Origin: Candidatus Latescibacterota bacterium
GTDB taxonomy: Bacteria > Latescibacterota > UBA2968 > UBA8231
Direction: 5' to 3'
Assembly: GCA_964291625.2 (NCBI GenBank)
Contig: OZ220089.1
Location: 128,001-192,000 of the forward strand
DNA length: 64,000 nt
Part shown: positions 2,326-55,681 of the stretch, piece after piece
Layout: the number at the start of each line of letters is the position of its first letter
How positions within the stretch are numbered: position 1 is the stretch's first letter
Made by a program: the position numbers and the translations under genes
Notes under the pieces: generated by a model
What the model saw: only the letters and a program-made list of their open reading frames with translations
The model's database searches: none
Told to the model about the DNA's origin: nothing

Positions 2326-2335
2326 GTCGGTCCCG

Positions 2336-2602: not shown

Positions 2603-2615
2603 GGCCGTCTCCTCC

Positions 2616-3173
2616 TCAGCCCAGGTACAGGGAAAGGACCGCTTCGGACGGACGGGCGATCACGTGGCGGGTCAGGAGCTCGCCCACGCGCTCCGCCGCC
2701 TCCGCGCCCGACGTGACCGCCGACTGCACGCTGCCCACGTCCCCGGTTACGAGGACCGATATGTAGCCGCCTCCGATCTCCTGCACGCGGACGACCTCCA
2801 CCTCCGCCGCCTTCTCCATGGCGTCGGCGGCCTCGATGACCCCCGTGGAGCCGCGGGTCTCCACCATGCCCAGGGCGCGGACCCCGCTCACCTCCCCGCC
2901 TCCCTTCGATGGCAGGATCACCCCCAGATCGGAATGAGGGCGGGGGATCACGTGCACGGCGCGCACCTCCCCGACCTTCGACGCCTCCTGGGCGCCGGCG
3001 TCGACCGCCGACTTCACGGCCGCCACGTCGCCGCCGCAGAAGAGGGTGGTCATGCCCGAGCCCACCCGGTCCCAGCCCAGCAGCTCCACCTTCGCCGCCT
3101 TGGATATCGCGTCTCCCCCGGCGATGAGGCCCGTGAGCCCCACGGTCTCCAACATGCCCAGAGCCTCTGTCAT
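2616..3173 (-). CDS. BMC shell protein with two tandem canonical BMC domains
   Basis: Two copies of ALGM(L/V)ET..K..GDV..V.SAV..G..HVI(P/A)RP in 185 aa. Confidence 0.92.
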
Positions 3174-3460
3174 CTCTCTCCTGCCTGCTCAGCAGCGGTA
3201 TCGATGTGAACCCGGTCGACTCGCCCGATGATGGCCGCGTCGGCCGGAACCCCGTCCTCGAAGGCGTTGCATGCCTCCCGGGAAACCTCCACGACGACCA
3301 GGTCTCCCTCCGCCATGGCCTGCCAGCCGACGGCCACCTCCGGATCGCCCACGCCCCGCAACTCGCCGTCCACGTCCTGCACCAGGTGCAGGCTCTTGTC
3401 CTGGTACGGCTCGACGGCCCGCGACAGAACCACCTGTCCGAGAACGCGGGAGAGCTTCAC
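3170..3460 (-). CDS. Divergent BMC vertex protein, EutN/CcmL-like
   Basis: MKLSRVLGQVV..GDLVVV..PADAAIIGRVD; 96 aa; overlaps both neighbours by 4 nt. Confidence 0.8.
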   Translation of the reverse strand: MKLSRVLGQVVLSRAVEPYQDKSLHLVQDVDGELRGVGDPEVAVGWQAMAEGDLVVVEVSREACNAFEDGVPADAAIIGRVDRVHIDTAAEQAGER

Positions 3461-31217: not shown

Positions 31218-31240
31218 GGAAGCCGGAACGGTGCGCCGCC

Positions 31241-32931: not shown

Positions 32932-32967
32932 TTTGATAGCGTCCTGCCCCGATATACTATTCATAGT
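32932..32967 (+). promoter_or_regulatory. Candidate promoter and operator for the exported-protein cluster
   Basis: TTGATA-16 nt-TACTAT; inverted repeat ACTAT-tc-ATAGT (32956-32967) overlaps the -10 box. Confidence 0.5.
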
Positions 32968-33069: not shown

Positions 33070-35250
33070 ATGAAACCTCTTGCCCTCTGCGCCAGCGCCG
33101 TTCTCGTGCTCAGCACGGCCGCCTCCGCCGAGGTCGTCGTCCTGGGGGGCCCCGGGAGTCCCTGGGAGGAGGGCGGAGGCGGGATCCCGGCGCAGGTGAT
33201 CCGCGGCGAGTCCGTGGAGGACACCAACACCCCGGGCGGCGTCATCGACTTCTCGGTCGAGGGCTACGACAACTGGATCTTTCCCCAGCGCGCCGACCCG
33301 GAGCTGAACATCGCGGTCGGTACCCTCGGGCGCGGCGGCGAGATCTCCACTCCCACCCACCGGGCCATCCGCAACGATCTCGGGAAGATCATCGACGACA
33401 GAGGCACCACAGGGCTGGATCTCCGCGAGACACCGGTCCTGGGCCTGATCGTCGACCTGGATCTCGGCGCCCGCTTCGGGGTCAATCGCTTCCGCTTCTT
33501 CCCCCGCAACGCCCTTCCGGAGATGCCGGCCGCCGACTTCCCCTTCCAGAACGACTTCCTGCGCGGCTACGAGCTCTTCCTCAACGACGGCACACCCGAG
33601 TCGGCAAGCCAGGGAAGGCCGATCCTCACGAGCGTGGCCGTGGAGGGGCAGAACGAGGAACCCGTCGTCGAGATCCGCATCCCGGCCCAGTACGTCCGGC
33701 TCATCCGCCTCAAGTCGCTCACCGCGGTCGGATTCGACCTGGCCGAGTTCCAGGTCTTCGGGACCGGTTTCGTGCCCGAGGCGGCCTACATCTCCAACAT
33801 CATCGACTTCGGCGCGCCGACCCTTCTCGGCAACCTCCGCTGGGCCCAGGATAAGGTGGGAGACGAGGTCTTCTCACGGATCAGGGTGCGCACCCGCTCG
33901 GGGATCGACCCCCAGCCCCTGATCTTCAACAAGATCCGCCCCGCCGAGGACATCTTCCGCATCTCCGGCCAGTTCTCTCCGCGAGAGTCCCACGTGCCCT
34001 GGAAGTTCGCCGACAAGGTCGACGACCCCGAGCTCAAGGCGCTCGTCGAGAACGTCCTGGACAACATCGATGTCGACATCCGCGACGCCACCCAGACTTT
34101 CAACGAGCTGTCCCTCGAACAGCGCGAGGAGCTCAGTCTGACCGAGGCGGACCACGGATCCCTGGCCCGGAAGGACAGGGGCGCGATCCGCCACGACGTG
34201 ACCGGCTGGAGCGAGTGGTCAGCGGTCTATCCCGCCGAGGCCGTGGTCGCGGCCGACGACCTCGAGGTGGAAGGGCTCGGCGTCCCGATCGTCTCGCCCA
34301 GTCCGCGGCGGTACTTCCAGGTACTGATCGAGTTCTACAGCGATGAGTTCGAATCGGCCACCGGCGTCGGCGGACTCGCCTTCGACGTTCTCACCCGGCC
34401 CTTCTCCCGGGCTCTCGTCGGGGAGATCCGGCCGCGAAGGACGGAACTCGGGGAGAAGACCCGGTTCACCTACGCGGTCCGCACCCTCTTCGAGCCGGGC
34501 CGCGACCGGGGTTTTGACCGGTTGAAGATCCAGACGCCCCTGCGCGTGGAGGAGGTGGGATCGGTGGAGATCCGGCGGTCCGACGGCACCGTGGAGTCGG
34601 CGGACTTCACCGGCAGCTCCCTGTCGGACCCGAGTCTGCCCGTGGCCCGGGGAGACTTCTCCATCCTCGAGGTGGAGGAGAAGTCCTTCACCGTAGGGTT
34701 CCCGGCCGTGGCCGAGGACGGGGTCGAGCTGCGCGTCACCTTCGACAACGCCGTGCTCCGCTTCGGCACGACCTTCTCCGGCCAGGCCCTGAACTCGGAG
34801 ACCGGCAACCTGCTGGGACAGCACCTTCTCCCCGGCAACGCCGCCGATCTGGGAGAGGGCGACGGCGACACCCTCCCGCTGGGCTCGCAGGTGGCGGGCA
34901 ACCTGGCCGTAAACGTGGGGATCACCGACGACCTCCTCGTCAACGTGAAAGCCTCGCCGGCGGTGATCACGCCCAACGGTGACGGGGCCAACGACGAGAG
35001 CTCGATCGGCTACGACCTGACCACGATCGGCGCGCCGACGCCGGTGGAGGTCGTCCTTCGCGACCTCTCCGGCCGTCCGGTCCGCCGCCTGTACGCCGGG
35101 AACGACGTGAGCGGACGCTTCGCCCTGCCCTGGGACGGCCGCGATGACTCCGGCCGGATCGTGCCGCCGGGAAACTACGTCTTCAGCGTGACGGTTGACG
35201 CGAAGACGGGACAGGCGCGGGCCTTCGGCACCGTCGCCGTGACCTACTAG
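33070..35250 (+). CDS. Exported protein with discoidin-like region and C-terminal FlgD-Ig/T9SS-CTD-like domain (paralogue A)
   Basis: Signal peptide (ASA-E); DLGARFGVNRFRFFPR; C-terminus ITPNGDGAND..DLSGRPVR..WDGRDDSGRIVPPGNY..AVTY. Confidence 0.8.
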   Translation: MKPLALCASAVLVLSTAASAEVVVLGGPGSPWEEGGGGIPAQVIRGESVEDTNTPGGVIDFSVEGYDNWIFPQRADPELNIAVGTLGRGGEISTPTHRAIRNDLGKIIDDRGTTGLDLRETPVLGLIVDLDLGARFGVNRFRFFPRNALPEMPAADFPFQNDFLRGYELFLNDGTPESASQGRPILTSVAVEGQNEEPVVEIRIPAQYVRLIRLKSLTAVGFDLAEFQVFGTGFVPEAAYISNIIDFGAPTLLGNLRWAQDKVGDEVFSRIRVRTRSGIDPQPLIFNKIRPAEDIFRISGQFSPRESHVPWKFADKVDDPELKALVENVLDNIDVDIRDATQTFNELSLEQREELSLTEADHGSLARKDRGAIRHDVTGWSEWSAVYPAEAVVAADDLEVEGLGVPIVSPSPRRYFQVLIEFYSDEFESATGVGGLAFDVLTRPFSRALVGEIRPRRTELGEKTRFTYAVRTLFEPGRDRGFDRLKIQTPLRVEEVGSVEIRRSDGTVESADFTGSSLSDPSLPVARGDFSILEVEEKSFTVGFPAVAEDGVELRVTFDNAVLRFGTTFSGQALNSETGNLLGQHLLPGNAADLGEGDGDTLPLGSQVAGNLAVNVGITDDLLVNVKASPAVITPNGDGANDESSIGYDLTTIGAPTPVEVVLRDLSGRPVRRLYAGNDVSGRFALPWDGRDDSGRIVPPGNYVFSVTVDAKTGQARAFGTVAVTY

Positions 35251-35262
35251 GGAGGAGCGAGC

Positions 35263-38079
35263 TTGAGGGCAATCAGGCTTCTCGCCGTCACCGCCGCGCT
35301 GCTGTCCAGCGCCCCGGTGCTCGGCCAGCAGGACTACGGAACGCGGCTCGGACTCCAGCGCGGGGGCGAGGTGAGCTTCGCGCCCCAGGGTTCCGGGGTG
35401 CTCTTCGGGGCCCTCGATCCCTCGATCAAGAAGTGGTACATCCCGCAGGAGCTGTTCAACTACTACGGCTGGCGCCAGTGGGAGTACACCAACTACGCCC
35501 GGGAGCCCTACCAGCGCTACGTGGGAACGAACCGGGAAGGCGATTTCTTCTACGACGTCTACGGCAACTTCACCACCCACGGCTGGCTCATCTACGACTG
35601 GCGGCAGTTCCAGCCCCAGTCCGAGGGCAGCGGCATCTTCCAGTCGACTCGCTTCAACTCCTGGTTCAACGCGGTCACCGTCAGCGGCGACTCCCAGGGG
35701 CAGTACGCCTACTCCATCACCGTGGGGGACCGCATCCGCACGACCCTGACGCCGATGACCTTCTCCAAGCCGGGGTTCAACGGGGTGCAGATCGACTTCT
35801 CCTCCGACAAGTACCACGCCACGGTGCTGTCGTCGCGCATCAGCGAACCGATCCACGGCTCCTCCCAGGGCCTGGCGGGTGTCACCGCGCCGACCCGGCG
35901 GACGAACCTCACCTCCCTCTTCGGAGGCCGCGCCACCTTCCAGGTGGGCGACTTCATCCTCCTGGGCGCCACCGTGGTGAACGCCACCAACGGCACCACC
36001 GTCCTCGACATGTTCGACGGCGACCCGGTGGCCGGCAACCTGACCTCGGGGCAGAGCACGGCCCCCCTCACGGCGATCGCCGTCGTCCTGAGCGACGACT
36101 CGCCCGAGGACGGCAGCGGAGGCGCCGCCCTCTTCAGCCACGACGTGCGAATCACGGCGCGGAACTTCGACACGGGGGCGGAGACGGTCTACACGCTGAG
36201 CGACGTGGTGCGCCCCGGCAGCCAGTGGCCCATCGTCTTCGGTGGCGCCCCGGGCTCAGGCTTCCTCGCCGCCGACGGCGAGGAGCGCATCATCCTCAAC
36301 TACGACTTCAACGACCCGGCTTTCGCCCCGCCCGCGGGAGTCGATCCCACGACGATCGTCAGGATCGAGTTCGACTACGTCCTGGCCAACGACTACAAGG
36401 TCGAGTTGTGGTCCGACCGGCAGAGTGCCCGCCGGGGCATTCCCCAGGCTCCGCTCACCGCGGATGTCATCGACGAGGCCAGGCCCGCCCTCCTCACCCT
36501 GCGCCGGGCCGAGGGCAACGTCGCCGACCTGACGAACCTGCAGCGCATCCGCTTCGACTACGGGCTGCCTACGGCCAACCTCGTGGGCGGCTTCACCATC
36601 GAGGGGACCGGTCTCTTCGGCCTCGATTTCTACGGGGAGTGGGACCGCAACAAGCGCTACACCCAGTATCCGAACGCCGAGCTTTTCAATCTGCGGGAGC
36701 AGCACAAGATCGCGTCGGAGTCGTCAGACGCCTGGTACGTCAACCTGTCGCGGGACGAGTATCCCTGGTTCGCCTTCGGCGAGGCCTACTCCATCGACGG
36801 CGCCTACTCGACCACGGCCTACCTGGTCAACAACGAGGGCAACACCGTCTACGACGACACCCAGCTCTATTTCTACGAGTTCGTCGATGACAACGACGAC
36901 CAGGACAGTGCCCCGGACTGGATCCGTTTCGACTCGCCCAGGGACCGGGCCATCTACCCGGGGTGGGACCAGAACAACGACTTCATCTCCGACTTCAACC
37001 AGAACGACAACGCCTCGGCGAACAACACCATCCCCGACTACGACGAGCCCTTCCTACGCTATCGCGTCGATCGTCCGGAGTTCCTCTTCGGCATCGATCT
37101 GAACAACAACGACTGGATCGACCGATTCGAGGACGACGACCTGCCCGACTATCCATACAAGCCCGACCGGCAGGGCTACAACGCCTTCGCCGGCTACCAC
37201 CTGACCCCCTGGGCGCGGCTCTCCCTGGGCCGAACCGACGAAGAGTCGCCCTCCTCCGACGCGGCGAACCAGACGAACTACGCCCTCTTCACCGTCGATT
37301 GGCAGCAGGCGGGCCTCGGCCGTCTGCGCCTCTTCGACATGCTCAAGCTGGCCCGTGACACGATCCCCGACGACCGCCGGGAGCCCACCCCCCATGTCCT
37401 GGCCCTCACCGTCCAGCCCCTCGTGCGGGACATCCTGCCCGCCCAGGACACCTGGGTGAACTCGGCTTACGCCGAGCTGATTTTCGAGGGCGTCCCCCGG
37501 CTCCAGATGGTGCACAAGCTGAAGTGGGAGACCTACCGGCAGAACATGGAGGGCCCACGCGACAGCGACGGCCGGCGCCTGCGGAGCGAGACCGACTTCT
37601 TCGGTCTCATCAACAAGGCCGACTACACCCTCGGCCTGGGACGGTTCGACCTGCAGCCGCGGATCAAGAGCGAGTACCTGAGACGCCAGGCCTTTGCCCT
37701 GGTGGACCCACGCAGGGAGGAGTGGACCCTCACTCTGCAGCTCATCGGACGCCTGCCCGTCATGCGCCACACCGTCATCGAATCCGGCCTGGAGCAGCTC
37801 TGGTTCGGCGACCTGGTGCAGGACGAGGATACCCTTCTGGCCGAGGCGTTGCAGCGAGAGACGGGCGACTGGCGCTCGACCAACGTGGCCTTCCAACTGT
37901 CGACAACCTCCGACTACCTCGGCTACAAGCTCACGACCCAGGTCGGCTTGCGCCTGGGTCGCATTCTCACCGAGCAGGTCGTCGAGGAGGACGATCGTCC
38001 GGGCTCATTCGTCCTCGAGAACCAGGGGAAGACCGAGACGACGACTTTCATCACCGTCTACGCGGGGCTTGAGCAGTGA
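35263..38079 (+). CDS. Large exported protein, probably outer-membrane beta-rich, with Asp/Asn-rich Ca-binding-like loops (paralogue 1)
   Basis: TTG start after GGAGGAG; signal peptide; aromatic-rich alternating strands; C-terminus TFITVYAGLEQ. Function unknown. Confidence 0.75.
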   Translation: MRAIRLLAVTAALLSSAPVLGQQDYGTRLGLQRGGEVSFAPQGSGVLFGALDPSIKKWYIPQELFNYYGWRQWEYTNYAREPYQRYVGTNREGDFFYDVYGNFTTHGWLIYDWRQFQPQSEGSGIFQSTRFNSWFNAVTVSGDSQGQYAYSITVGDRIRTTLTPMTFSKPGFNGVQIDFSSDKYHATVLSSRISEPIHGSSQGLAGVTAPTRRTNLTSLFGGRATFQVGDFILLGATVVNATNGTTVLDMFDGDPVAGNLTSGQSTAPLTAIAVVLSDDSPEDGSGGAALFSHDVRITARNFDTGAETVYTLSDVVRPGSQWPIVFGGAPGSGFLAADGEERIILNYDFNDPAFAPPAGVDPTTIVRIEFDYVLANDYKVELWSDRQSARRGIPQAPLTADVIDEARPALLTLRRAEGNVADLTNLQRIRFDYGLPTANLVGGFTIEGTGLFGLDFYGEWDRNKRYTQYPNAELFNLREQHKIASESSDAWYVNLSRDEYPWFAFGEAYSIDGAYSTTAYLVNNEGNTVYDDTQLYFYEFVDDNDDQDSAPDWIRFDSPRDRAIYPGWDQNNDFISDFNQNDNASANNTIPDYDEPFLRYRVDRPEFLFGIDLNNNDWIDRFEDDDLPDYPYKPDRQGYNAFAGYHLTPWARLSLGRTDEESPSSDAANQTNYALFTVDWQQAGLGRLRLFDMLKLARDTIPDDRREPTPHVLALTVQPLVRDILPAQDTWVNSAYAELIFEGVPRLQMVHKLKWETYRQNMEGPRDSDGRRLRSETDFFGLINKADYTLGLGRFDLQPRIKSEYLRRQAFALVDPRREEWTLTLQLIGRLPVMRHTVIESGLEQLWFGDLVQDEDTLLAEALQRETGDWRSTNVAFQLSTTSDYLGYKLTTQVGLRLGRILTEQVVEEDDRPGSFVLENQGKTETTTFITVYAGLEQ

Positions 38080-39734
38080 GGCGTCTGCTCGTACCGGCGG
38101 CCGGACTCGCCCTCGTCATCTCCGGGTGCGGTTCCGATCCGGGGGAGCCCGTCCTGGCCACCGTCGCCGGCGATCCGATCACCCTCTCCGAGTTCCGCTC
38201 CTTCGCCGAGCGCATCCCGGAGGGTATGAAGGAAGGCGAGACGCCCTACGAGCGGGACCGCCAGCTCCTGGAGAGCCTGGTAGACAGGGAGCTGCTGCTG
38301 AAGGCCGCGTTGGACACCGGCGTCGAGTCCGACCCCGAGGTGCAGGACGATCTGGAGCAGTTCGAGCACCGGTACCTCCGCAAGCTGCACTATCGGGAGT
38401 ACATCGCCCGCCGGGTGACGATCACGCCGGAGGAAGTGGAGGCTCACCATCGCGCCACCGGGCGCCACCGGGCCCTGCGGCTGGGCGCCATCATGCTGCA
38501 TGAAGCGGCCGAGGCGGACTCGATTCACGCCCTCCTGAAGGCTGGAGCCGACTTCAAGACCCTGGCGAGAAAGCACTCGGTCCACGAGCCGACAGCCCCG
38601 AAAGGAGGAGACTTCGGCACCTATCTCGTCCGGGATTACATGCCCCCGGTGGCCGGCAAGGTGGCCGCAGACCTCGAGGTGGGGGCCTTCACCGAGCCCT
38701 TGCGCGAGACTCTGCGCCGCGTGGGCCGCTTCCACGTGATCTACATGGTTATCGACGAGGTCCCCTCCCCCCTGAGCGCTTCCGAGGGGATCGTCGTCGA
38801 GGAAGTGGCCCGGCGCAAGAGCGACGAGCGCATGCTGGAGTACCTCGACTCCCTGCGGTCCGTCTACCCCGTCCGGGTGCGCGGCGCGACGGTGCGCCTG
38901 GCGGCGGAGCGGATCTCCGAAGCCGGGGAAACCGGCCCCGACCTGAGCGACGCGGAAGTCGGGGAGGTGATCGCCACCTACGGCGACCGGGAGGTCACGT
39001 TGGGCCGTTTCTTCGAGATGGCGCGCCAGGCGCAGGCGAAGGGAGTCGAAGAGGCGGACAGCCTCGCCATCGCGCAACTGCTGGACGACCAGATCCTCTC
39101 GGAGCTGTTCATCCAGGCCGAGATCGAGGCCGCCGGGCTGCGGGAGGAGGCCGGCCTCCGCAAGGCGGTGGGCCTCAAGCGGCAGGAATTGCTCGTCACC
39201 GCCCTGCGGCGCCGCGAGGTGACCAGTCACGTCCGCGCTTCCGACGAAGAGGCCCGTCGGTTCTACGACGAGAATCCGGACCAGTTCACCCGGCCGGAGT
39301 ACACCTCCGTCGTCGAGATCGTCGTCGCCTCCGACACCATGGCCATGCGCCTGCGGCAGGAGCTGGAGGAGGGCGCCGACGCCGAGACGCTGGCGGCGGA
39401 GCACACCCTGCGCCCGGGGGCCGCCCATCACAACGGCCGGCTCAACGTGAGCATCTTCACCCGGAGCTTCTTTCCCGTCCTGGCCGAGAAGGTTTCCGAG
39501 GTGGAGGTCGGCGGCGTCGGAGGCCCCTTCGAGGTAGCCATGGGGCATTCCGTCTTCAAGGTGCTGGAGCGGGAGGCCTACAAGGACCCCTACAACGAGG
39601 AGTCGAAGCGCCGCGCCAGGGCCTACGTGCGCATCGCCAAGGCCCAGCGAGGGTACTCGGAGTATGTCCGCGGTCTCCGCGAGGAGTATCCCGTGCAGAT
39701 CTTCGAGGATCGGCTGCGAAGGATCGAGGGATGA
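38076..39734 (+). CDS. Lipoprotein foldase with duplicated SurA/PrsA-type chaperone plus parvulin modules
   Basis: Lipobox ISGC; VLATVAGDPITLSEF and VIATYGDREVTLGRF; DFKTLARKHS..KGGDFG. Confidence 0.8.
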   Translation: MRRLLVPAAGLALVISGCGSDPGEPVLATVAGDPITLSEFRSFAERIPEGMKEGETPYERDRQLLESLVDRELLLKAALDTGVESDPEVQDDLEQFEHRYLRKLHYREYIARRVTITPEEVEAHHRATGRHRALRLGAIMLHEAAEADSIHALLKAGADFKTLARKHSVHEPTAPKGGDFGTYLVRDYMPPVAGKVAADLEVGAFTEPLRETLRRVGRFHVIYMVIDEVPSPLSASEGIVVEEVARRKSDERMLEYLDSLRSVYPVRVRGATVRLAAERISEAGETGPDLSDAEVGEVIATYGDREVTLGRFFEMARQAQAKGVEEADSLAIAQLLDDQILSELFIQAEIEAAGLREEAGLRKAVGLKRQELLVTALRRREVTSHVRASDEEARRFYDENPDQFTRPEYTSVVEIVVASDTMAMRLRQELEEGADAETLAAEHTLRPGAAHHNGRLNVSIFTRSFFPVLAEKVSEVEVGGVGGPFEVAMGHSVFKVLEREAYKDPYNEESKRRARAYVRIAKAQRGYSEYVRGLREEYPVQIFEDRLRRIEG

Positions 39735-42718: not shown

Positions 42719-42729
42719 GGACTGGGATC

Positions 42730-44649
42730 ATGACCAGGACGGGACGTACCATCGCGCAGGCCCTGACCCTGCTGCTGGGCCTCGGCACCACCGCCCAGGG
42801 ACTGACCATCTACCGCATCGGGGGCTCGATTCTACCACCGCCCGAGCTGCCCGAGGGGGCCGACTTCGTGCAACTGGAGTGGCAGGCCGCCAAGGACAGC
42901 GATCACGGCGCCATCGATCTGCTGCACGGGCTCGAGCCGGACGCCCTGGAGCCGGACAAGCTGGACCCGACGGTGAACCTGGCCCCCGTTTTCGACGAGA
43001 TCGGCGGGAGCATCTACAGCTACGCCACGCACGGCTTCGTGGCCGGGTTCAAGGCAGAGGCCGCCCTCTTTGACGGCGATCCCGAGACCGTGCTTCTCGG
43101 GGACGGCCACTGGGGCGGAGCCAGCCACTATCGCTTCCTGGAAATCGTCTTCGACTTCCCGGGCACCTTCACCATCTCGCGGATCAGGATGTATCCGCGC
43201 GAGCGATACATCGCGAGCCGCTTCGTCCAGTGGTTTCGCATCGGGTTCAACGACGCCGAACGCACCAGAAGGGGCGGCCCGGTCATCCGCGCCCGCAACT
43301 GGGAGTTCGAGGTCGTCTACGAGGACCTCGAGAACTCCCGGGGGCTCATCGAGTTGACCGCCCTGCCCGAGTACCCGGTGAAGGAGCTGCTCGTCTCGCT
43401 GGCCGAGAACACGCAAGGCATCTGGGAAATGGCCGAAATCGAGGTCTACGGCCGGGGCTACACGCCCGAGGCCGCCTACGTGAGCCAGGTCATCGACCTC
43501 GGGGGCCCCTCCGCGCTGGGGGACCTCAGTTGGTCCGCCGAGGTCGACCCCGGAGCCGACCTGACGTTGCGCATGCGGGCCGGGGACGATCCGGTTCCCA
43601 ACACTTACTGGCGTTACACCTTCCGCGGCAGCGGGGCCACCAGCCGCTTGGACGAGCAAGGCCAGCCCCTGACAAAGGGCGGATACCTGAGCCTGGACAG
43701 GCGGGAACGGGCCGGGACCACGCCGGACACCGAGAACTGGGACGGTTGGAGCACATCCTTCGATCACTCCGAAGGGACCGTGCCTTTCCAGGCCTCACGG
43801 CCCCGTCAGTACCTCCAGGTGCGCGCTGATTTCAACTCCACCGTCGACGCCGGCTCCCGCCTCCAGTACCTCCAGTTCGCGGTCTCCCAGCCGCCGGCCG
43901 CCACCGTGGTCCTCGGGGAGATCACCCCGACCGTGGCCTCCGTCGACGAGGTGACGCCCTTCACCTACCTGATGACGCCTGTCATGCGCTCCGGGAACTT
44001 CGGGTTCGACCGCATCCGCATCGACACGCCCACCACCGCGGCCGGCGTCGACGGTGTGCGCTTCAACGGCCAGCCCGTCGCCTACGAGGTCCTTCACCTC
44101 GACGAGTCGGGCTTCGAGATCGCCATCCCCCGGGTCGACGAGAGCCGCGACGGCGAGCTCATCGAGATTGACTTCCGCTCCCGGATCTTCCGCTTCGGCA
44201 CCGTCTTTACCGGCCGGGTCATGGACAGCCAGCGCCCCGAGGAGGTGGCGCAGGTGGTCTCCCCCGGCGAGGCGGACCCGATCGTCGACAGCAACACCCT
44301 GAGCGTCGGCCTGGAGGAGGTGGGACGGCGGACGGTCAATGCCCTCACCCTCGAGCCGCCGGTCTTCAGCCCCAACGGAGACGGCATCAACGACCGGGTG
44401 AGTCTCGATTACGAGCTGGTGAATGTGGAGGGCGACGCCGAGGTGGCCATCGTCCTCTACGACCTGCGGGGCTCGCCCGTGGAGGAGGTCTTCCGCGGCC
44501 CGGCCGGTAGCGGCCGGTTCCGTGCGGAGTGGGACGGCCGCGATGCCGGGGGACGCCTCCTCGGGCCGGGGATCTACATCCTGCGGATCGAGGTCGAGTC
44601 GGACCTCGGAATCAGGTCCAGGGAAAGGGTCGTCTCCCTTGTCTACTAG
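42730..44649 (+). CDS. Exported protein with C-terminal FlgD-Ig/T9SS-CTD-like domain (paralogue B)
   Basis: Last 639 aa of track ORF 40660..44649; signal peptide MTRTGRTIAQALTLLLGLGTTAQG; FSPNGDGIND..WDGRDAGGRLLGPGIY..SLVY. Confidence 0.8.
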   Translation: MTRTGRTIAQALTLLLGLGTTAQGLTIYRIGGSILPPPELPEGADFVQLEWQAAKDSDHGAIDLLHGLEPDALEPDKLDPTVNLAPVFDEIGGSIYSYATHGFVAGFKAEAALFDGDPETVLLGDGHWGGASHYRFLEIVFDFPGTFTISRIRMYPRERYIASRFVQWFRIGFNDAERTRRGGPVIRARNWEFEVVYEDLENSRGLIELTALPEYPVKELLVSLAENTQGIWEMAEIEVYGRGYTPEAAYVSQVIDLGGPSALGDLSWSAEVDPGADLTLRMRAGDDPVPNTYWRYTFRGSGATSRLDEQGQPLTKGGYLSLDRRERAGTTPDTENWDGWSTSFDHSEGTVPFQASRPRQYLQVRADFNSTVDAGSRLQYLQFAVSQPPAATVVLGEITPTVASVDEVTPFTYLMTPVMRSGNFGFDRIRIDTPTTAAGVDGVRFNGQPVAYEVLHLDESGFEIAIPRVDESRDGELIEIDFRSRIFRFGTVFTGRVMDSQRPEEVAQVVSPGEADPIVDSNTLSVGLEEVGRRTVNALTLEPPVFSPNGDGINDRVSLDYELVNVEGDAEVAIVLYDLRGSPVEEVFRGPAGSGRFRAEWDGRDAGGRLLGPGIYILRIEVESDLGIRSRERVVSLVY

Positions 44650-44679
44650 ATGCCCAGATGCTGACAGGAGGATCCGCAC

Positions 44680-47334
44680 ATGACACGGATCATCAGCTTC
44701 ACCGCCCTTCTGGTCCTGGTTGCCGCCACTGGCCTGACGGCCCAGGGCCGGGCGTACCGGATCGCCGGCGACGAGCTTGTCGTCGACCGCCGCAGCCTCT
44801 GGCAGAACTGGATCTATTCCGAGGAAACCCTCGAGGTCTCCCCCTCGGGAGAGGTGAGCCCCCTCGCCCTGCGCAAGGACATCAACGCCGTCCCCGAGAT
44901 CGTCCGCTACCTGCGCCTCCATCCACCGCCGCACCTCAAGAACAAGGAGCCCGAGGAGATCACCCTCGCCGACGCCTTGCAGGCCGGCTCCAACCCCCGT
45001 GACGTGGTCAACGTCCTCGACGGGGACCCGACCACATACTGGCAGCCCGACCTGACCGACGCCCCCCCCGTCGAGCTCGGCGCGCGCTGGTGGCTCATGG
45101 TCGACCTGGGACGGAACGTCATCGCCAAGAGGCTGGTACTTCGGTTCGCGGAGGAGGAACTGGGCGATCCGTTCCTTCAGTTCGACGTCCTCGTCTCAAA
45201 CGGCGAGCGTTCGCCGTCGGCCGCCGCTTCGAAACACCCGTTCTTCGCAACGGTGTACCGAACGTTGAGGCCCAACAAGGACGTCCGGGTGCTGGACCTC
45301 ACCTTCGAGGACGTAAACGCCGATTCCGTCGTCGGCGAGGCGCCGCTGGCCGCCATCCTGCCGCCATCCACCGTCGACCGCGACCACAGCGTGCAGGCCC
45401 CCAGGGAACTCGCGGGCGCCTCGCTGCGATACGTCATGGTGGTCGTCCGTGACAGCGACTTCGACCGCGGCCGGCTGGTCAGCCCCGAGGCCTACGCCGC
45501 CCTGCCCGAGGACGACAAGGGCGCCGTCGTCCACCACAAGCTGCAGCGGGACGGCCGGCTCACCGAGTTGAGCGAAGCCGACTACCTGCGTCTGCCCGCC
45601 GGACAGCAGGGAGAGATCCTCCACTACCGCAAGGAGCGGCCCCGCCTGGCCGACATCGAGGTGTGGACCGAGGGGGACAACGTCATGCCCGCCATCTACA
45701 AGCGCGGCGGGGAAATCAGCGGCAACGCGAACCTGAACTACGGCAGGCTGGTGGACGGCCTCGTGGGCTCCTTCACCGAGGTCAACATGGGCCGAGAAGG
45801 GTACGTCCTCTTCGACCTGGGGGCCACCTTCTGGCTCGACGCCTACCGGCTGATGTACGGCGGCGTCACGAACCGCGAGAGGAAGAGCTTCAACTCCTAC
45901 GATCTCGAGGCCTCCGACGGATCCCTGAACCCCGACGGCACCCTGAAGTTCAAGACCGTGGCCCGCCGCATACAGAAGCAGATGCGCAAGGACTTCGAGG
46001 TTCACGACTTCGACCTCGTGAAGACCCGGTTCTTCCGCCTCGTCTTCGAGTTGGGCTTCACCCACGAGCAACCTCACACCTCCGCGCCAGGGGAGATCTA
46101 CCTCTATGGCCGGGGATACATCGCCGAAGTCCGCATGGAGTCGGGCCTGGTCGAGCTAGGAGCCCGCCGCAACCTTCTGAGCATGTCCTGGGAAGCGGAC
46201 ACCCCGCCCGGGACCGCAATCTCGATCCAGACCCGCGCCGGCAACGAGCTGCGGGAGGTCCTCCACTACTACAAGGCCGACGGCACGGAGATCAGCGAGA
46301 AGGCCTACAACAATCCGTCCCTGCTGGCTTCCTTGAAGGGCCCCATCGTCGCCGAGATGGTGGAAGGAGACGACTGGAGCGGCTGGAGCCAGCCCTACGA
46401 GGACGCCTCGGGAAGTCCCTTCCTCTCTCCCTCCCCTAGGGAGTTCCTCAACATCGCCGCCACCCTGGTCTCGGACGATCCCGATCTGCACCCTACGCTT
46501 CGCTCCCTCCGGCTGCGCTTCAGCAACCCCGTCGCCCAGGGGCTCCTTGCGGAGGTGACCCCCACCCGGGTCGACTCGCTGGGGGTCCCGCGGGACTTCT
46601 CCCTCTTCCTGCGGCCCGAGTTCGACAGGCGGGACCCGGGATTCGACGAGCTGCTGCTCAGGACGCCCCCCGACATGTCCCTGGAATTCGCCGGGCTCTA
46701 CGCCGGGACGGCCGAGGAGTTCGACGGCGGGGGCGGTACCCTGGTAGAGGATGTGGAGGTCATTCCCACCGGTCCCGACAGCCTGCGCCTCTCCTTCCCC
46801 ATGGTGGAGCCCCGCGGGATCGAGGTGTTGCGCCTCGACTTCCGAACCGCCCTGTTCACCATCGGCGCCCAGTTGCAGGCCGCGGTCAAGCGGGCCCGGG
46901 ACGGTGAGGACGCCTGGCAGCGGGTCGATCCCGGCGACGCCCTCGCCAGCGTCGAAAGCGAAGCGATCACCCTCATCGGCGAAGCCACCGGCGGCAGCCT
47001 GCTTGCCGGTGTGAACCTGAGTTCCCCGGTCATCACGCCCAACGGCGACGGGATCAACGACGAAGCCCTGTTCTCGCTCAAGGTCGTCCGCGTCGCCGAC
47101 GGGAGTCCCGTGGACCTGCGGATCCACGACCTTGGGGGCCGGCTCGTTCGCCGGATCGTCGAGCACGGGTCCGCGGGTACCGGTCTCTACGAGATCGCCT
47201 GGGACGGCCTCGACGCCAACGGGCTCGTCGTGCCCCCGGGGATCTACCTCGCGCGCCTGCGGGTCGACACCGACGACGGCGGGCGCCGCCTGGAGGGCCG
47301 CGAGGCGATGCGGACCCTGGCCGTGTCCTACTGA
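44680..47334 (+). CDS. Exported protein with C-terminal FlgD-Ig/T9SS-CTD-like domain (paralogue C, extra N-terminal region)
   Basis: GGAGG RBS; signal peptide; ITPNGDGIND..DLGGRLVR..WDGLDANGLVVPPGIY..AVSY. Confidence 0.8.
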   Translation: MTRIISFTALLVLVAATGLTAQGRAYRIAGDELVVDRRSLWQNWIYSEETLEVSPSGEVSPLALRKDINAVPEIVRYLRLHPPPHLKNKEPEEITLADALQAGSNPRDVVNVLDGDPTTYWQPDLTDAPPVELGARWWLMVDLGRNVIAKRLVLRFAEEELGDPFLQFDVLVSNGERSPSAAASKHPFFATVYRTLRPNKDVRVLDLTFEDVNADSVVGEAPLAAILPPSTVDRDHSVQAPRELAGASLRYVMVVVRDSDFDRGRLVSPEAYAALPEDDKGAVVHHKLQRDGRLTELSEADYLRLPAGQQGEILHYRKERPRLADIEVWTEGDNVMPAIYKRGGEISGNANLNYGRLVDGLVGSFTEVNMGREGYVLFDLGATFWLDAYRLMYGGVTNRERKSFNSYDLEASDGSLNPDGTLKFKTVARRIQKQMRKDFEVHDFDLVKTRFFRLVFELGFTHEQPHTSAPGEIYLYGRGYIAEVRMESGLVELGARRNLLSMSWEADTPPGTAISIQTRAGNELREVLHYYKADGTEISEKAYNNPSLLASLKGPIVAEMVEGDDWSGWSQPYEDASGSPFLSPSPREFLNIAATLVSDDPDLHPTLRSLRLRFSNPVAQGLLAEVTPTRVDSLGVPRDFSLFLRPEFDRRDPGFDELLLRTPPDMSLEFAGLYAGTAEEFDGGGGTLVEDVEVIPTGPDSLRLSFPMVEPRGIEVLRLDFRTALFTIGAQLQAAVKRARDGEDAWQRVDPGDALASVESEAITLIGEATGGSLLAGVNLSSPVITPNGDGINDEALFSLKVVRVADGSPVDLRIHDLGGRLVRRIVEHGSAGTGLYEIAWDGLDANGLVVPPGIYLARLRVDTDDGGRRLEGREAMRTLAVSY

Positions 47335-47345
47335 CCTCAAAGTGG

Positions 47346-47374
47346 TTGATTTTCCGGTTTCTTTTTCGTAGTAT
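47346..47374 (+). promoter_or_regulatory. Promoter of duplicated cassette, copy 1
   Basis: TTGATT-17 nt-TAGTAT, bracketed by inverted repeat gtggttga (47342) / tcaaccac (47389). Confidence 0.65.
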
Positions 47375-47455
47375 TCGGCTGCTAACCGTCAACCACACTC
47401 AGGACCGAGGGTATCCCAACCTCGATCTTCACCCTACCATCATGCGATTGGAGAC

Positions 47456-48394
47456 ATGATCATGAGAAAGACCCTCACCATGGCGGTCCTGCTGCTGGGC
47501 TTCGGCTCGGCGCAGGCCCACATTCCCCCTGGCAGTGTGCTCGGGGTCTGGCAGTGGCCCTCGAATGCCCTGCCCGAGTTGGACGGCGACATCAGCGAGT
47601 GGGAGATCATCCCGGATTACCTGTGGCTCAATCCGGCCACCAGCCTGGACAACGACGGCAACCCCGTGTTCACCGGCGTCCATGGCAATGACAAGGGCAT
47701 GACCGGCCCCGAGGGTGACGCCTCCGATCTCACCATACGCGTCGCCGTCGCCTGGAACGACGAATACGACCGCATGTACTTCGCCCAGGAGCGCTTCGAC
47801 GACGTGTACGACCGCGACGTTGCGGAGCCGCCCGGCGAGTGCGGCGGCGACGACAGCATCGAGATCCACGTCGACGCCGACCACACCGGCGGCGTCATGG
47901 TCACCGGCGACGACGAGACGCAAGCCAGGTCGGCCCAGATCGCGCACTGGCGCTGGCCGCCCATCGGAGAAGGCAACAACGCCTGGAGCTGGATGTGGGT
48001 GAGCTCCGCCACCTGGCACGACAAGGAGCCCTATGCCTGCTGCCCCGACGCCTTCGACATCGACGGTGGGCACGGCGACACCGATGTGACGCTGGTATCC
48101 GAGTGGTGGACCGTCTACTTCAACGGCCTGGTTCACGAGTCGCCCGAGGAGAGCGTGGTCGCCCCCCTTTCGGAGGGCCAGATCATCGGCATGACCTTGG
48201 CCCTTTGCGACATCGACGCAGCCGACCAGGAGGGCCCCAATACGGTCTGGGTGTCGGGAGGTGAAGGCGCGGCGAGGTATTACGCTGACAGCGATGTCCT
48301 CGGCGACTGGGTTCTGCTGCCCGTGGATGAAGCCTTGATGACCGCCGTCGAGTCCAACAGCTGGGGCCAGGTCAAGGCCAGTCTCCAGCAGTAA
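47456..48394 (+). CDS. Exported acidic protein, CBM9/DOMON-like, with C-terminal TAVESNSWGQVKAS motif (copy 1)
   Basis: Signal peptide (AQA-H); LDGDISEW, VAWND..MYF, DDSIEIHVDAD, L.EGQIIGM. Start at 47456 or 47462. Confidence 0.75.
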   Translation: MIMRKTLTMAVLLLGFGSAQAHIPPGSVLGVWQWPSNALPELDGDISEWEIIPDYLWLNPATSLDNDGNPVFTGVHGNDKGMTGPEGDASDLTIRVAVAWNDEYDRMYFAQERFDDVYDRDVAEPPGECGGDDSIEIHVDADHTGGVMVTGDDETQARSAQIAHWRWPPIGEGNNAWSWMWVSSATWHDKEPYACCPDAFDIDGGHGDTDVTLVSEWWTVYFNGLVHESPEESVVAPLSEGQIIGMTLALCDIDAADQEGPNTVWVSGGEGAARYYADSDVLGDWVLLPVDEALMTAVESNSWGQVKASLQQ

Positions 48395-48425
48395 GAAGCG
48401 GCTGTTAGTCCACGCCGCTGTTTCC

Positions 48426-48462
48426 AGTGAGGCAGGCCCTCGAGGGCCTGCCTCACTCTTTT
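48426..48462 (+). terminator. Intrinsic terminator, copy 1
   Basis: Perfect 32-nt palindrome agtgaggcaggccctcgagggcctgcctcact followed by ctttt. Confidence 0.85.
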
Positions 48463-48481
48463 GTGCCTGAGCAGGAATGCG

Positions 48482-48510
48482 TTGATTTTGCGGGGGTTTG
48501 GTGGTAGCTT
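48482..48510 (+). promoter_or_regulatory. Promoter of duplicated cassette, copy 2
   Basis: TTGATT-17 nt-TAGCTT, in the same position as in copy 1. Confidence 0.65.
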
Positions 48511-48579
48511 ACGCCAAGCCGCTCAGGATCGAGGTACCGCGCCCCGATCGTTCACCCCTCCCACCTGGCGATTGGAGAC

Positions 48580-49550
48580 ATGACCATGAGAAAGACCCTA
48601 ACCATGGCGGTTCTGCTGCTGGCCTTCGGCTCGGCGCAGGCCCACATTCCCCCGGGCGTCGTCCTCGGCGTCTGGCAGTGGCCTTCGGATGCCCTGCCCA
48701 CCATGGACGGCGACATCGGCGAGTGGGAGGTCATACCCGACTACCTCTGGCTTACCCCGTCCACCCTGGACACCGACGGCAACGCCCTGTTCCACGCCGT
48801 TGCGGGCGATCACAAGGGCATGGACGGCACCGAGAATGACGCCTCCGACCTCACCATCCGCGTCGCCGTCGCCTGGAACGACGAGTTCGACCGCATGTAC
48901 TTCGCCCAGGAGCGCTTCGACGACGTGTACGACCGCGACGTGGCGGAGCCGCCCGGCGCGTGCGGCGGCGACGACAGCATCGAGGTCCACGTCGACGCCG
49001 ACCACAGCGGCGGCCTCCTCTACTACTCCGGCGACGACTTTCCCGACACCGACGACGGGCGGGCGGCACGGACGGCTGCCAACGGCCGGAATGCCCAGAT
49101 CGCCCACTTCCGCTTCCCGCCGATCGGAGAAGGGAACAACGCCTGGCACTGGCTGTGGGTGAGCGCCGCCACCTGGCACGACAGGGAGCCCTACTCCTGC
49201 TGCCCCGACTCCTACGACTTGGACGGTGAGCACGGCGGCACCGATGTGACCCTGACCGCCGAGTGGTGGTCGGTCTACTTCAACGCCCTGGACCACCAGT
49301 CGCCCGAGGAGAGCGTGATCGCCCCCTTGTCGGAGGGTCAGATCATCGGAATGGGCGTCGCCTTCTGCGACATCGACGGGGCCTCCAACGACGCGATGGC
49401 CACAACTCGGTCTGGCGGTCGGGCGGTCCCGGCGGCGCGAGGTGGTACGCTGACAGCGAGTTCGTCAGCGACTGGATCCTGCTGGAGGACATGATGACGG
49501 CCGTCGAGTCCAACAGTTGGGGGCACGTCAAGGCCAGCTTCCAGCAGTAA
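48580..49550 (+). CDS. Exported CBM9/DOMON-like protein, copy 2, with frameshift near 49394
   Basis: Highly similar to 47456..48394. The homologous C-terminus (GHNSVWRSGG..TAVESNSWGHVKASFQQ) lies in the frame of ORF 49263..49550. Confidence 0.75.
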
Positions 49551-49590
49551 GAGCGGCTGCCCCAGCCGCCGCTGGTATGGCGATATTCCA

Positions 49591-49625
49591 GGGGAGGCAG
49601 GCCCCCGCGGCCTGCCTCCCCTTTT
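49591..49625 (+). terminator. Intrinsic terminator, copy 2
   Basis: ggggaggcaggcc-5 nt-ggcctgcctcccc followed by tttt. Confidence 0.85.
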
Positions 49626-55592: not shown

Positions 55593-55681
55593 GGGTCGTG
55601 GAGGCGGCTTTCTCGGGGGTTTTTCGAAGCCCGTGAATATAGACGGAATCCGCGTCTGGAGCCCGGGGGGGTGAGGCCTGA

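Follow-up and report, generated by a model that had tools for sequence, protein, structure and literature searches.

The window, a 64,000-nucleotide stretch of a Latescibacterota genome (contig OZ220089.1, positions 128,001 to 192,000), carries between positions 33070 and 49550 eight consecutive ORFs, all on the + strand and belonging to four protein families, as a sequence-only reading had noted and as comparisons of barrel with barrel, of cargo A with B and with C, and of SWG1 with SWG2 support. These genes, together with candidate signals and two recurrent neighbors of such cassettes, are as follows.

33070..35250, + strand: cargo A, 726 aa, with a signal peptide, a CBM32/discoidin-like N-terminal domain, an array of Ig-like beta-sandwiches, and a "PNGDG...VTY" C-terminal domain
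35263..38079, + strand: giant barrel 1, 938 aa, with an N-terminal region, a predicted outer-membrane beta-barrel, and an Asp-rich loop segment
38076..39734, + strand: SurA-like lipoprotein (PPIase), 552 aa, with two parvulin PPIase domains
39731..42718, + strand: giant barrel 2, 995 aa, a paralogue of barrel 1
42730..44649, + strand: cargo B, 639 aa, lectin-like, with the same tail class as cargo A
44680..47334, + strand: cargo C, 884 aa, with an F5/8-type-C (NedA-like galactose-binding) domain and the same tail class as cargo A
47456..48394, + strand: SWG1, 312 aa, a CBM9-like secreted protein with the C-terminal tag SWGQVKASLQQ
48580..49550, + strand: SWG2, a paralogue of SWG1, frameshifted near 49392
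32933..32960, + strand: sigma-70-like promoter match, ~110 nt upstream of gene A, a consensus match only
48426..48457, + strand: terminator-like hairpin with a 14-bp stem, after SWG1
49590..49622, + strand: terminator-like hairpin with a 14-bp stem, after SWG2
29571..31604, - strand: FG-GAP/ASPIC (CRTAC1-like) protein, a recurrent cassette neighbor
53640..56000, - strand: DUF6785/DUF6784 membrane protein (379.5 and 96.9 bits), a recurrent cassette neighbor

According to the coordinates, the spacings from gene A to SWG2 are +12, -4, -4, +11, +30, +121, and +185 nt, which bears out the tight packing (30 nt or less) described earlier for the first six genes. The promoter-like match upstream of gene A is the sole one between positions 32500 and 50000. 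Hydrophobic N-termini, read by eye from the sequence and without a predictor, are present throughout, in line with the signal peptides ascribed to all eight proteins, and Pfam gives no catalytic domain in the eight proteins outside the parvulin domains, as had also been said. Both genes of the SWG pair exist, sharing 81% DNA identity, but the description of two SWG-tailed proteins needs amending, since SWG2 carries a frameshift in the window: near 49392 it is two bases longer than in a 99%-identical genome of the same genus, and three genomes of this genus in all have an uninterrupted ORF.

The 938- and 995-aa proteins, which the sequence-only reading had proposed as a new barrel family, are predicted to be outer-membrane barrels of ~26 strands. 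They are 39% identical to each other over their full length (580 bits), and neither belongs to a Pfam (searched at E <= 0.01) or NCBIfam family; no Pfam family recurs among 36 aligned members of the family (E <= 1), and a profile search with the family found no match among PDB sequences (E <= 10). The nearest Atlas clusters are unnamed, with DUF6029 at 0.89 being a lead only, and on the strength of these searches we regard the barrels as a large unnamed protein family. In the AF2 model of barrel 1 (pLDDT 69.8, pTM 0.67), 25 strands of at least 8 residues lie between residues 148 and 935, where pLDDT is mostly 75-94, and the signal peptide and the closed antiparallel barrel thus predicted are the general features of an outer-membrane beta-barrel. 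The strong fold matches of the model are all large outer-membrane barrels and not soluble non-barrel folds, which fits the earlier proposal, although these matches are generic (TM 0.18-0.27, 6-11% identity) and structures of TBDTs match only as generic barrels. The top Foldseek matches are the barrels of SlpA and the S-layer deinoxanthin-binding complex (7zgx and 8ae1; E about 2e-7), this SlpA-type match having a VIA Z of 12.4 over 405 residues and a TM of 0.21, and the ushers FimD and PapC also appear (E 4.5e-5 to 1e-3, TM about 0.2). The family resembles LptD-LptE, MtrB-MtrA/MtrC, FimD, and SlpA in predicted strand number and in having co-encoded soluble or surface partners, but the cassette comes without LptE, multihaem cytochromes, pilins, or SLH domains. 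The N-terminal region of barrel 1 (~115 aa), which is conserved and did not model, and the Asp-rich loops (residues 540-631) are the best-conserved parts of the family and are invariant across paralogues.

Cargo A is related to both B (E 6e-56) and C (E 5e-33), and the best Pfam match of the C-terminal domain of all three proteins is FlgD_ig (36, 22.3, and 30.5 bits in A, B, and C; above the cut-off in A and C). The AF2 model of cargo A (pLDDT 88.3), which matches galactose oxidase, the CBM32 structure 4zz5_A, and MG/Ig arrays, consists of a CBM32/discoidin domain plus an Ig-like array without a catalytic fold, and its last ~80 residues form a strand-only domain. Cargo C matches F5_F8_type_C_2 with 29.5 bits. 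For SWG1 and SWG2, the CBM9_1 (PF06452) scores of 20.2 and 18.8 bits lie under the cut-off of 23.4, a paralogue from a different cassette reaches 27.6 bits, and CBM9_1 is found in 13-94% of the members of the Atlas clusters nearest to SWG1; a search of SWG1 against PDB sequences gave a chance-level match only. The lipoprotein, whose lipobox reads VISGC in the sequence, matches Rotamase_2 (64.6 bits), Rotamase (61.6 bits, two stretches), and Rotamase_3 (38.9 bits), while its SurA_N_3 score of 26.7 bits is barely under the cut-off of 27.2. It thus combines a SurA-like N-terminal domain with parvulin domains, as SurA/PpiD/PrsA-type parvulin chaperones do.

The gene set is found eight times in this genome, which holds four further, divergent cassettes (12 loci altogether), and in 78 related loci, a repetition that is far beyond chance. 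In 71 of the 78 related loci, an A-type gene immediately precedes a barrel gene of the same orientation, and 76 contain some cargo gene. The SurA-like lipoprotein regularly accompanies the other genes, with homologs in 7 of the 8 cassettes of this genome and in 56 of the 78 related loci. The divergent cassettes have three barrels for one "PNGDG...VAY" tail and carry a MotA/ExbB gene. Of 151 sampled genomes of the phylum, 94 yielded the barrel and 85 yielded cargo A, with both occurring together in 84 of these 85. In the organism's own family, both are present in 63 of 63 genomes, whereas two sister families have neither (0/30 and 0/19 for both). The barrel family is thus linked, both in gene order and in the lineages in which it is found, to proteins with this C-terminal tail.

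The locus is covered by contigs from four RNA libraries (30 of 30 bins in X1, 22 in X2, 18 in X6, and 16 in X10), which are labeled sponge or marine metagenome. These contigs show neither strand nor transcript ends and may stem from carried-over DNA, and we therefore derive from them neither an operon transcript nor a ranking of gene expression. The labels, together with the SlpA and S-layer barrels at the top of the Foldseek list and the similarity of the Ig-like arrays of cargo A to adhesins and to the matrix protein RbmA, would agree with a structural coat or adhesion layer, in which the barrels are abundant SlpA-like anchors that carry lectin-like adhesins for host surfaces or particles, without any transport. 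We consider such a layer very unlikely, given the low TM-scores of the matches (0.21), given that neither SLH nor coiled-coil parts were observed, and given that twelve cassettes, each with its own sugar-related neighbors, fit a specialization for substrates better than a single coat.

The flanks of the present cassette encode RhaM, three metallophosphoesterases, an FAD oxidoreductase, and a GH32-like protein; those of other cassettes hold PcRGLX-like, GDSL, BNR, and GlcNAc-2-epimerase genes, and the FG-GAP/ASPIC architecture also adjoins four other cassettes. Of the 27 copies of DUF6785 in the genome, 10 are no more than 15 kb away from a barrel gene (such zones make up 7.3% of the genome; binomial p = 1e-5), and the DUF6785/DUF6784 protein is by this association a possible inner-membrane partner; the other 17 copies are far from any barrel. 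In Bacteroidota, SusC/SusD loci occur as many paralogues per genome and combine a large barrel with non-catalytic glycan-binding proteins and varied carbohydrate-related flanks. The cassettes are alike in forming paralogous loci, in pairing a barrel with surface proteins of glycan-binding type, and in having carbohydrate-related flanks that differ between loci. A Sus-like uptake system can thus be envisaged, in which the barrels import large glycans, cargo A, B, and C and the CBM9-like SWG proteins bind them, and DUF6785/DUF6784 takes them across the inner membrane. Such a system would be consistent with the lectin-type folds and domains that come without enzymes (CBM32-like, F5/8-C, and weak CBM9), with the 8 + 4 cassettes in this one genome and their different sugar-related flanking genes, with the enrichment of DUF6785 near barrels, with a ~26-strand predicted barrel that is roomy enough for large solutes, and with the MotA/ExbB gene of the divergent cassettes. 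However, we found no Plug (PF07715), TonB_dep_Rec, or SusD-like domain in the 36 barrel-family members (E <= 1) or in the eight cassette proteins, and no SusD-family match in the flanking genes scanned. The Pfam scans of neighbors, one of which covered 82 of 127 ORFs near cassettes, namely those outside the four families, returned no MotA_ExbB among the neighbors of this cassette type, and few clear glycoside hydrolases lie within the cassettes. The cassettes also differ from SusC/SusD in that no TonB box, SusD fold, or TonB/ExbBD gene is seen in this cassette type, in that their barrel family has no sequence kinship with SusC, and in that the binding proteins bear a T9SS-type tail where those of Sus loci have a lipid anchor. 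The distance of most DUF6785 genes from barrels adds to these objections, and uptake by itself leaves unexplained why exactly one class of tails is tied to the barrels. We rate uptake as unlikely, though as a serious contender, and it is compatible with the anchoring of surface proteins by the barrels that we discuss below: the two can coexist.

In this genome, 122 ORFs end in a FlgD_ig-like domain, and the addition of gene B gives 123 T9SS-type tails. A single split of their tree (support 0.968) sets 28 "PNGDG...VAY" tails apart from 95 "PNPFN...LLK/R" tails, and 27 of the 28 have a barrel gene no more than 10 kb away. When the tails are sorted by their last residues, 25 of the 26 that end in [VILA][AVS]Y are this close to a barrel gene compared with 5 of the 96 others (Fisher p = 5e-20), one of these five being gene A, which ends in VTY. 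We compared the tails with TIGR04131 (type B), TIGR04183 (type A), and CHU_C (PF13585), whose cut-offs are 35, 23, and 27 bits. TIGR04131 matches 25 of 26 tested cassette tails at 13.2-29.2 bits, frequently along positions 4-77 of the 85 in the model, a similarity that is real yet below the cut-off; in the window it gives 14.7-17.7 bits in A, B, and C (17.6 in A and 17.7 in B), and CHU_C gives 17-23 bits (17.1 in A and 22.6 in B). The cassette tails also stay under the type A cut-off (11.9-20.6 bits with TIGR04183), whereas the tails tested from the other class, four in number, all exceed it (26.7-38.7 bits) and give no match with the type B model. The 95 "PNPFN...LLK/R" tails thus appear to be type A-like, and the 28 "PNGDG...VAY" tails have a sub-threshold similarity to type B. 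Of the earlier claim that the cargo proteins carry a type B C-terminal domain, the resemblance to type B models stands, but it is sub-threshold and FlgD_ig remains the best match.

The cargo proteins show the general traits of T9SS cargo, namely a signal peptide and a C-terminal Ig-like domain of the FlgD_ig type, in a genome that encodes SprA (607 bits), two PorU proteins (572 and 537 bits), and, beside one of the latter, a PorV-like protein (114 bits, below cut-off). PorP/SprF (TIGR03519) has no match over the cut-off in this genome, where the best score (20 bits) falls on the PorV-like gene, and none in the 151 sampled genomes of the phylum; the barrel to which the cargo genes are linked comes from a different family, and no sequence kinship between it and PorP/SprF can be detected. 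SprA is found in 146 of the 151 genomes, including lineages without barrels, from which we conclude that the barrels are not a general part of the T9SS; for the same reason, SprA was rejected as a discriminator for barrels. The GldM model has no match here or in control genomes and the GldK model matches with its C-terminal half only, below cut-off, so that a working T9SS motor is only putative.

That a GldKLMN-type motor was not detected with the GldM and GldK models would suit a private, usher-like export, in which the barrels serve as pores for A, B, and C without SprA, their N-terminal region docks the cargo, and the parvulin lipoprotein delivers it. The conserved ~115-aa region ahead of the barrel, the gene for a dedicated periplasmic chaperone between the two barrel genes, and the presence of FimD and PapC among the Foldseek matches point in the same direction. 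Nevertheless, the tails are homologous to T9SS tails in a genome that has SprA, PorU, and a PorV-like gene, and LptD, MtrB, and SlpA match at least as well as the ushers do. SurA-type chaperones, moreover, are known for outer-membrane-protein biogenesis and not for cargo delivery. Export of this kind seems to us improbable.

The reading that we favor, tentatively and with a little less than even confidence, is that the giant barrels are partners of the PorP/SprF kind, which keep lectins at the cell surface after their export by the T9SS. In Bacteroidota, type B cargo proteins are genetically linked to PorP/SprF-like barrels and depend on or bind them, as exemplified by SprB-SprF, Fjoh_3952-Fjoh_3951, and PG1035-PorP-PorE in two articles (PMC12618676, PMC9143113), the first of which delimits the type B sorting domain by five conserved motifs, A-E, within the last 100 residues. 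Besides this analogy, we base our proposal on the clean split of the tails into two classes (28 versus 95), on the near-exclusive linkage of the "PNGDG...VAY" tails to barrel genes, and on the model scores, with the other class passing type A and the cassette tails matching type B sub-threshold. It is further supported by PorP/SprF being absent over the cut-off while SprA, PorU, and a PorV-like gene are present, by the gene order (71/78) and the shared lineage distribution (84/85), and by the folds, since the barrel matches large outer-membrane barrels and cargo A is lectin-like and non-catalytic. In such a scheme, cargo A, B, and C would be exported through SprA, the barrels would receive these lectins from the T9SS and retain them at the surface, the parvulin lipoprotein would fold and insert the barrels, and the surface complex would catch glycans, which would thus be ligands.

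The likeness to the type B and PorP/SprF pairs lies in a minority class of T9SS-type tails that is distinct from a type A majority, in the proximity of its genes to genes for outer-membrane barrels, in a TPNGDGxND-type N-terminal stretch of a tail that aligns to most of TIGR04131, and in a genome with SprA, PorU, and the sub-threshold PorV-like gene. The differences are that the cassette barrels have 900-1000 aa and ~26 predicted strands, compared with 292 positions in the NCBIfam model of PorP/SprF, that the cassettes often have two paralogous barrels, that a SurA-like lipoprotein of their own and CBM9-like proteins with a tag form part of them, and that the tails are under the type B cut-off and the cassettes come in 12 copies in this genome, outside Bacteroidota. 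Several of these points weigh against anchoring: the cassette tails fall short of the curated type B threshold, the barrels are about three times as large as PorP/SprF without a detectable sequence relation, and anchoring alone does not explain their size. In addition, the numbers are not one to one, as three cargo and two SWG genes accompany two barrels here, and the invariance of the N-terminal region and of the Asp-rich loops across paralogues fits a common partner better than cassette-specific cargo. Finally, GldM is without a match, GldK has only its sub-threshold half, and no SprA match was obtained in 4 of the 94 barrel-positive genomes, these four being 64-96% complete. A bolder and decidedly unlikely extension, to which we give somewhat less credence than to Sus-like uptake, is that the cassettes constitute a third, independent route by which FCB-group bacteria feed on complex sugars, a machine for capture and import in which giant barrels would act with lectins that the T9SS loads onto them by a private tail, and a C-terminal "SWGxIK" tag shared by unrelated families would dock CBM9-, Cache-, and LRR-type binding modules onto the conserved N-terminal region of the barrel.

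The earlier view of the system as undescribed agrees with our survey of the literature on Latescibacter, type IX secretion, and FlgD Ig-like domains, in which we found no description of it. Queries with the tail motifs WGRIK, WGxIK, SWGxIK, and WGQVK returned only one unrelated virus paper, and the gemmatimonad literature on T9SS and polysaccharides gave a review-type mention only. The 2015 Latescibacteria genome paper assumes unspecific porins and, in the portion of its text that was available, makes no mention of the gene set. If the barrels are indeed partners of a private tail class, the logic of type A and type B sorting would extend beyond Bacteroidota, with a different and much larger partner, and the pairing of barrel and tail would bear on how T9SS cargo is sorted after translocation. 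With 12 loci here, and up to ~190 barrel candidates in related genomes according to a loose first pass, the cassette ranks with the most expanded gene sets in a largely uncultured group. Since its proteins are all annotated as "hypothetical" or left unnamed, metabolic reconstructions overlook what may be the principal contact of these bacteria with polysaccharides or the surfaces of hosts.

Eight consecutive forward-strand ORFs lie between window positions 33070 and 49550, as the sequence-only reading had described, and its claim of a signal-type hydrophobic N-terminus on every protein holds for all eight, judged by eye from the sequence rather than by a predictor. The lipobox of the peptidyl-prolyl isomerase (PPIase) lipoprotein was recognized in the same way.

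Features of the cassette (promoter and hairpins are consensus matches only)
32933-32960: promoter-like match, the sole one in the region
33070-35250, +: cargo A, lectin-like protein with a C-terminal secretion tail, 726 aa
35263-38079, +: barrel 1, giant predicted outer-membrane beta-barrel, 938 aa
38076-39734, +: PPIase lipoprotein, 552 aa
39731-42718, +: barrel 2, 995 aa
42730-44649, +: cargo B, 639 aa
44680-47334, +: cargo C, 884 aa
47456-48394, +: SWG1, 312 aa
48426-48457: terminator-like hairpin with a 14-bp stem, 3' of SWG1
48580-49550, +: SWG2, frameshifted
49590-49622: terminator-like hairpin with a 14-bp stem, 3' of SWG2

The intergenic spacings are, in order, +12, -4, -4, +11, +30, +121, and +185 nt. 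Relative to a 99%-identical congeneric genome, SWG2 has an insertion of two bases near 49392; the ORF is intact in that genome and in two more of the genus (three in all), and one base at 49392 is absent from one RNA-library contig. Either SWG2 was recently disrupted by mutation and is now a pseudogene, or the assembly is wrong at this point. The cassette locus is matched at ≥95% likeness by contigs of four RNA libraries, each from a different study; in library X1, 30/30 bins are covered and 40 of the 93 contigs reach ≥99%. Expression of the cassette genes is thereby weakly indicated, the contigs being compatible with DNA carry-over and uninformative as to a single transcript.

Full-length identity between barrels 1 and 2 is 39%, and neither has a match in Pfam or NCBIfam; no recurrent Pfam match emerged among 36 aligned family members at E ≤ 1, a family profile retrieved nothing from the PDB sequences at E ≤ 10, and the Atlas neighbours of the barrels are unnamed clusters only. 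The barrel family is large. Scoring of 8000 candidates gave 911 members at E ≤ 1e-3; none of the best 120 has a Pfam domain, and any name given to them is "hypothetical protein". A search at 50% clustering yielded 710 representatives, of which many are fragments. An AlphaFold2 model built from the 36 sequences is of middling confidence (mean pLDDT 69.8, pTM 0.67) and places 25 strands of at least 8 residues between residues 148 and 935, mostly at pLDDT 75 to 94. The pLDDT drops below 50 at residues 15-146 and 540-631, which nevertheless show the highest conservation in the alignment; the N-terminal region has many invariant aromatic residues, and the 540-631 segment has Asp/Asn-rich stretches of the DxDxD type. 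Foldseek and VIA-align matched the model to outer-membrane barrels only, which supports the fold class, an outer-membrane barrel of very large size, as a prediction. SlpA/SDBC reached an E value of about 2e-7 and a Z score of 12.4 over 405 residues, and LptD, MtrB, FimD, TonB-dependent receptors, and porins gave TM scores of 0.18 to 0.27; neither program supported a specific structural relative. That the barrels act as private exporters in the manner of an usher seems to us improbable. Our literature searches retrieved no published description of the cassette; unspecific porins are what the consulted passages of the 2015 Latescibacteria genome paper assume.

The three cargo proteins share their C-terminal half (E values of 6e-56 and 5e-33), and the last ~80 residues score 36 (A), 22.3 (B), and 30.5 (C) bits against the Pfam FlgD_ig model, whose cut-off is 27; cargo C also has an F5/8-type-C-like domain in Pfam. 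The model of cargo A is confident (pLDDT 88.3, pTM 0.78) and matches galactose oxidase at the galactose-binding and Ig-like parts of the latter, the chitosan-binding CBM32 module 4zz5_A (TM 0.71 on the target), the CBM of EndoS2, the MG-domain arrays of complement and alpha-2-macroglobulin, and RbmA. On this model, cargo A is an all-beta lectin/Ig array without a catalytic fold. A structural or adhesive coat made by the barrels and their cargo we consider quite unlikely. The SWG proteins match CBM9 below the Pfam threshold. The PPIase lipoprotein has two parvulin domains and a SurA-like N-terminal domain (Pfam), and a second SurA/PpiD-like parvulin protein at 62228-64000 on the reverse strand (Rotamase_2, 104 bits; SurA_N_2, 77 bits) outscores it. 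Since that second protein is probably a housekeeping chaperone, the PPIase of the cassette would be a dedicated paralogue.

The genome (5.9 Mb in two contigs, C1 and C2, the window being C1:128001-192000) contains 24 barrel ORFs in all, and a phmmer census with the eight cassette proteins as queries found the four families together at 8 loci. Outside the window, genes were called with our own ORF filter based on third-position GC; gene B, and possibly others, escaped it. The PPIase is present in 7/8 of these window-type loci and an SWG gene in 8/8, and in 5/8 an A-type gene immediately precedes a barrel. In the cassette at 4.20-4.22 Mb of C1, the second barrel (4213593-4216399) matches as two overlapping pieces, 4213593-4215890 and 4215872-4216399, an indication that the gene is split or frameshifted. 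Four additional loci (C1:13953-26626, 360363-376436, and 4444740-4457745; C2:41689-58000) are of a divergent type, with three tandem giant barrels each, at about 100-170 bits, and one such cargo. By tail class, they have one "VAY" protein and one type A protein; they also hold a 1082-aa TPR protein, and some carry DUF4159 (three loci), DUF5683 (two), or MotA/ExbB (one).

The arrangement recurs in other genomes. Among 78 related loci, taken from the best 80 of 652 confirmed matches and thus a non-random set with many close relatives, an A-type gene immediately precedes a barrel on the same strand in 71, at least two barrels are present in 66, the PPIase in 56, an SWG gene in 54, and any cargo gene in 76; 188 of their 206 cargo ORFs end in xY. 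By record label, 58 loci belong to Latescibacterota/Latescibacteria, 17 to Gemmatimonad-, 2 to Planctomycetota, and 1 to Myxococcales. We counted lineages in one common sample of 151 genomes of the phylum and, the relatives not being independent, give the counts without a test.

Genomes positive for each family (all; own family; sister family f2; sister family f3)
Barrel family: 94/151; 63/63; 0/30; 0/19
Cargo A family: 85/151; 63/63; 0/30; 0/19
SprA: 146/151; 63/63; 30/30; 19/19

A barrel was found in 84 of the 85 cargo-A-positive genomes. Across lineages, the barrel and cargo families are present together and absent together. The barrel-free lineages still have SprA, which was missed in four barrel-positive genomes with a completeness of 64-96%.

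The two SWG proteins end in ...SWGQVKASLQQ and ...SWGHVKASFQQ. The pattern [ST]W[GA]x[IVL]K occurs in the last 16 residues of 58 of the 34,120 ORFs of at least 80 aa and of 35 of the 5,139 likely genes; in four control windows further upstream it occurs in 0/5,139, and the likely genes hold only 36 occurrences in 2.4 million residues. Only 19 of the 58 tagged ORFs belong to the SWG/CBM9-like family, and 20 others that we scanned comprise five Cache-domain proteins, two LRR proteins, one weak match each to CBM9, lipocalin, and DUF4992, and ten with no match, so that the motif is a strictly C-terminal tag shared by unrelated binding-type families. We consider it a candidate sorting or docking signal, of which our literature searches found no description. 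A DNA pattern for the S/T-W-G-R-I-K-A subset is present in 63/151 genomes, with up to 64 copies per genome (own family, 53/63; f2, 2/30; f3, 0/19), and its reversed control in 0/151. This narrow form is almost confined to barrel-bearing lineages, f2 and f3 being barrel-free, and both listed f2 matches (G047 and G074) start with TGA. Only ~10 of the 58 tagged ORFs are close to barrels. Two tandem arrays of SWG/CBM9-like paralogues, one of six (C1:3471490-3491447) and one of three (3545436-3548268), are distant from every giant barrel gene; all of these proteins end in ...SSWGRIKAAL....

The cassette of the window is flanked by rhaM, three metallophosphoesterases, a hexapeptide transferase, an FG-GAP/ASPIC protein, a pentapeptide protein, an FAD oxidoreductase, a GH32-like protein, a DUF6785/DUF6784 protein, and a TPR protein, and other cassettes have PcRGLX-like, GDSL, BNR, amidohydrolase, and GlcNAc-2-epimerase enzymes; FG-GAP/ASPIC, TPR, PMT_2-TPR, and DUF6785/6784 recur across cassettes. 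The large DUF6785/DUF6784 membrane protein of the window (53640-56000, reverse strand) has 26 other paralogues in the genome. Ten of the 27 genes are found at most 15 kb from a barrel, a distance range that takes in 7.3% of the sequence (binomial p = 1e-5). The protein is a possible inner-membrane permease of the barrel loci. A Sus-like import role for the barrels, which is compatible with anchoring, is in our view unlikely but worth keeping in mind. No MotA_ExbB was found among the scanned neighbours of the window-type cassettes. Elsewhere in the window, an aldehyde dehydrogenase adjoins a protein with two bacterial microcompartment shell (BMC) domains (901-3188, reverse strand), and a 536-aa ORF with gene-like codon bias (20377-21987, reverse strand) has no Pfam family.

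The genome encodes SprA (607 bits, ~24 kb upstream of the window) and two PorU proteins (572 and 537 bits), one of which adjoins a PorV-like gene (114 bits, under the cut-off). PorP/SprF, the barrel partner of type B cargo in Bacteroidota, does not exceed its cut-off in this genome or in any of the 151 sampled (best score, 52.7 versus 90.55 bits). The Bacteroidota GldM model had no match in the genome and the GldK model matched with its C-terminal half alone, under the cut-off; in this group, the component that powers the T9SS may have diverged strongly or may belong to a different type.

An iterated HMM search gave 122 ORFs of the genome with a C-terminal FlgD_ig-type domain. Twenty-six have tails of the cassette kind, ending in [VILA][AVS]Y and with a PNGDG-type motif in 25, and 25/26 have a barrel gene no more than 10 kb away. 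Of the remaining 96, 89 have a PNPF-type motif and end in LLK or LLR; only 5 of the 96 lie within that distance, namely four in divergent cassettes and gene A, whose tail ends in VTY (Fisher p = 5e-20 for tail class versus barrel proximity). With gene B added, a FastTree phylogeny separates 28 from 95 tails by a single split without exception (support, 0.968). When tails alone were scored with the NCBIfam models, all four tested tails of the other kind passed the type A model (26.7-38.7 bits; cut-off, 23) with no match to type B, and one reference had no match whatever. The cassette tails score 11.9-20.6 bits against type A, and 25/26 match the type B model TIGR04131, often over nearly its whole length, at 13.2-29.2 bits, all under the cut-off of 35. 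The designation "type B CTD" in the sequence-only reading therefore stands as a resemblance and not as membership. Five type B motifs are described in PMC12618676.

The cleanest fact of our analysis is that a minority T9SS-type tail class is encoded, with almost no exception, beside giant barrel genes. In the Bacteroidota pairs SprB-SprF and PG1035-PorP, type B tails are partnered by the PorP/SprF family, according to PMC12618676 and PMC9143113, and by analogy with these pairs we propose, as a tentative yet plausible reading, that the barrels are partners of the lectins. It leaves the barrel size, the invariant N-terminal region, and the uneven gene numbers without explanation. According to this proposal, the giant barrels would serve as the cognate outer-membrane partners of the lectins, and the parvulin lipoprotein would help to fold the barrels.
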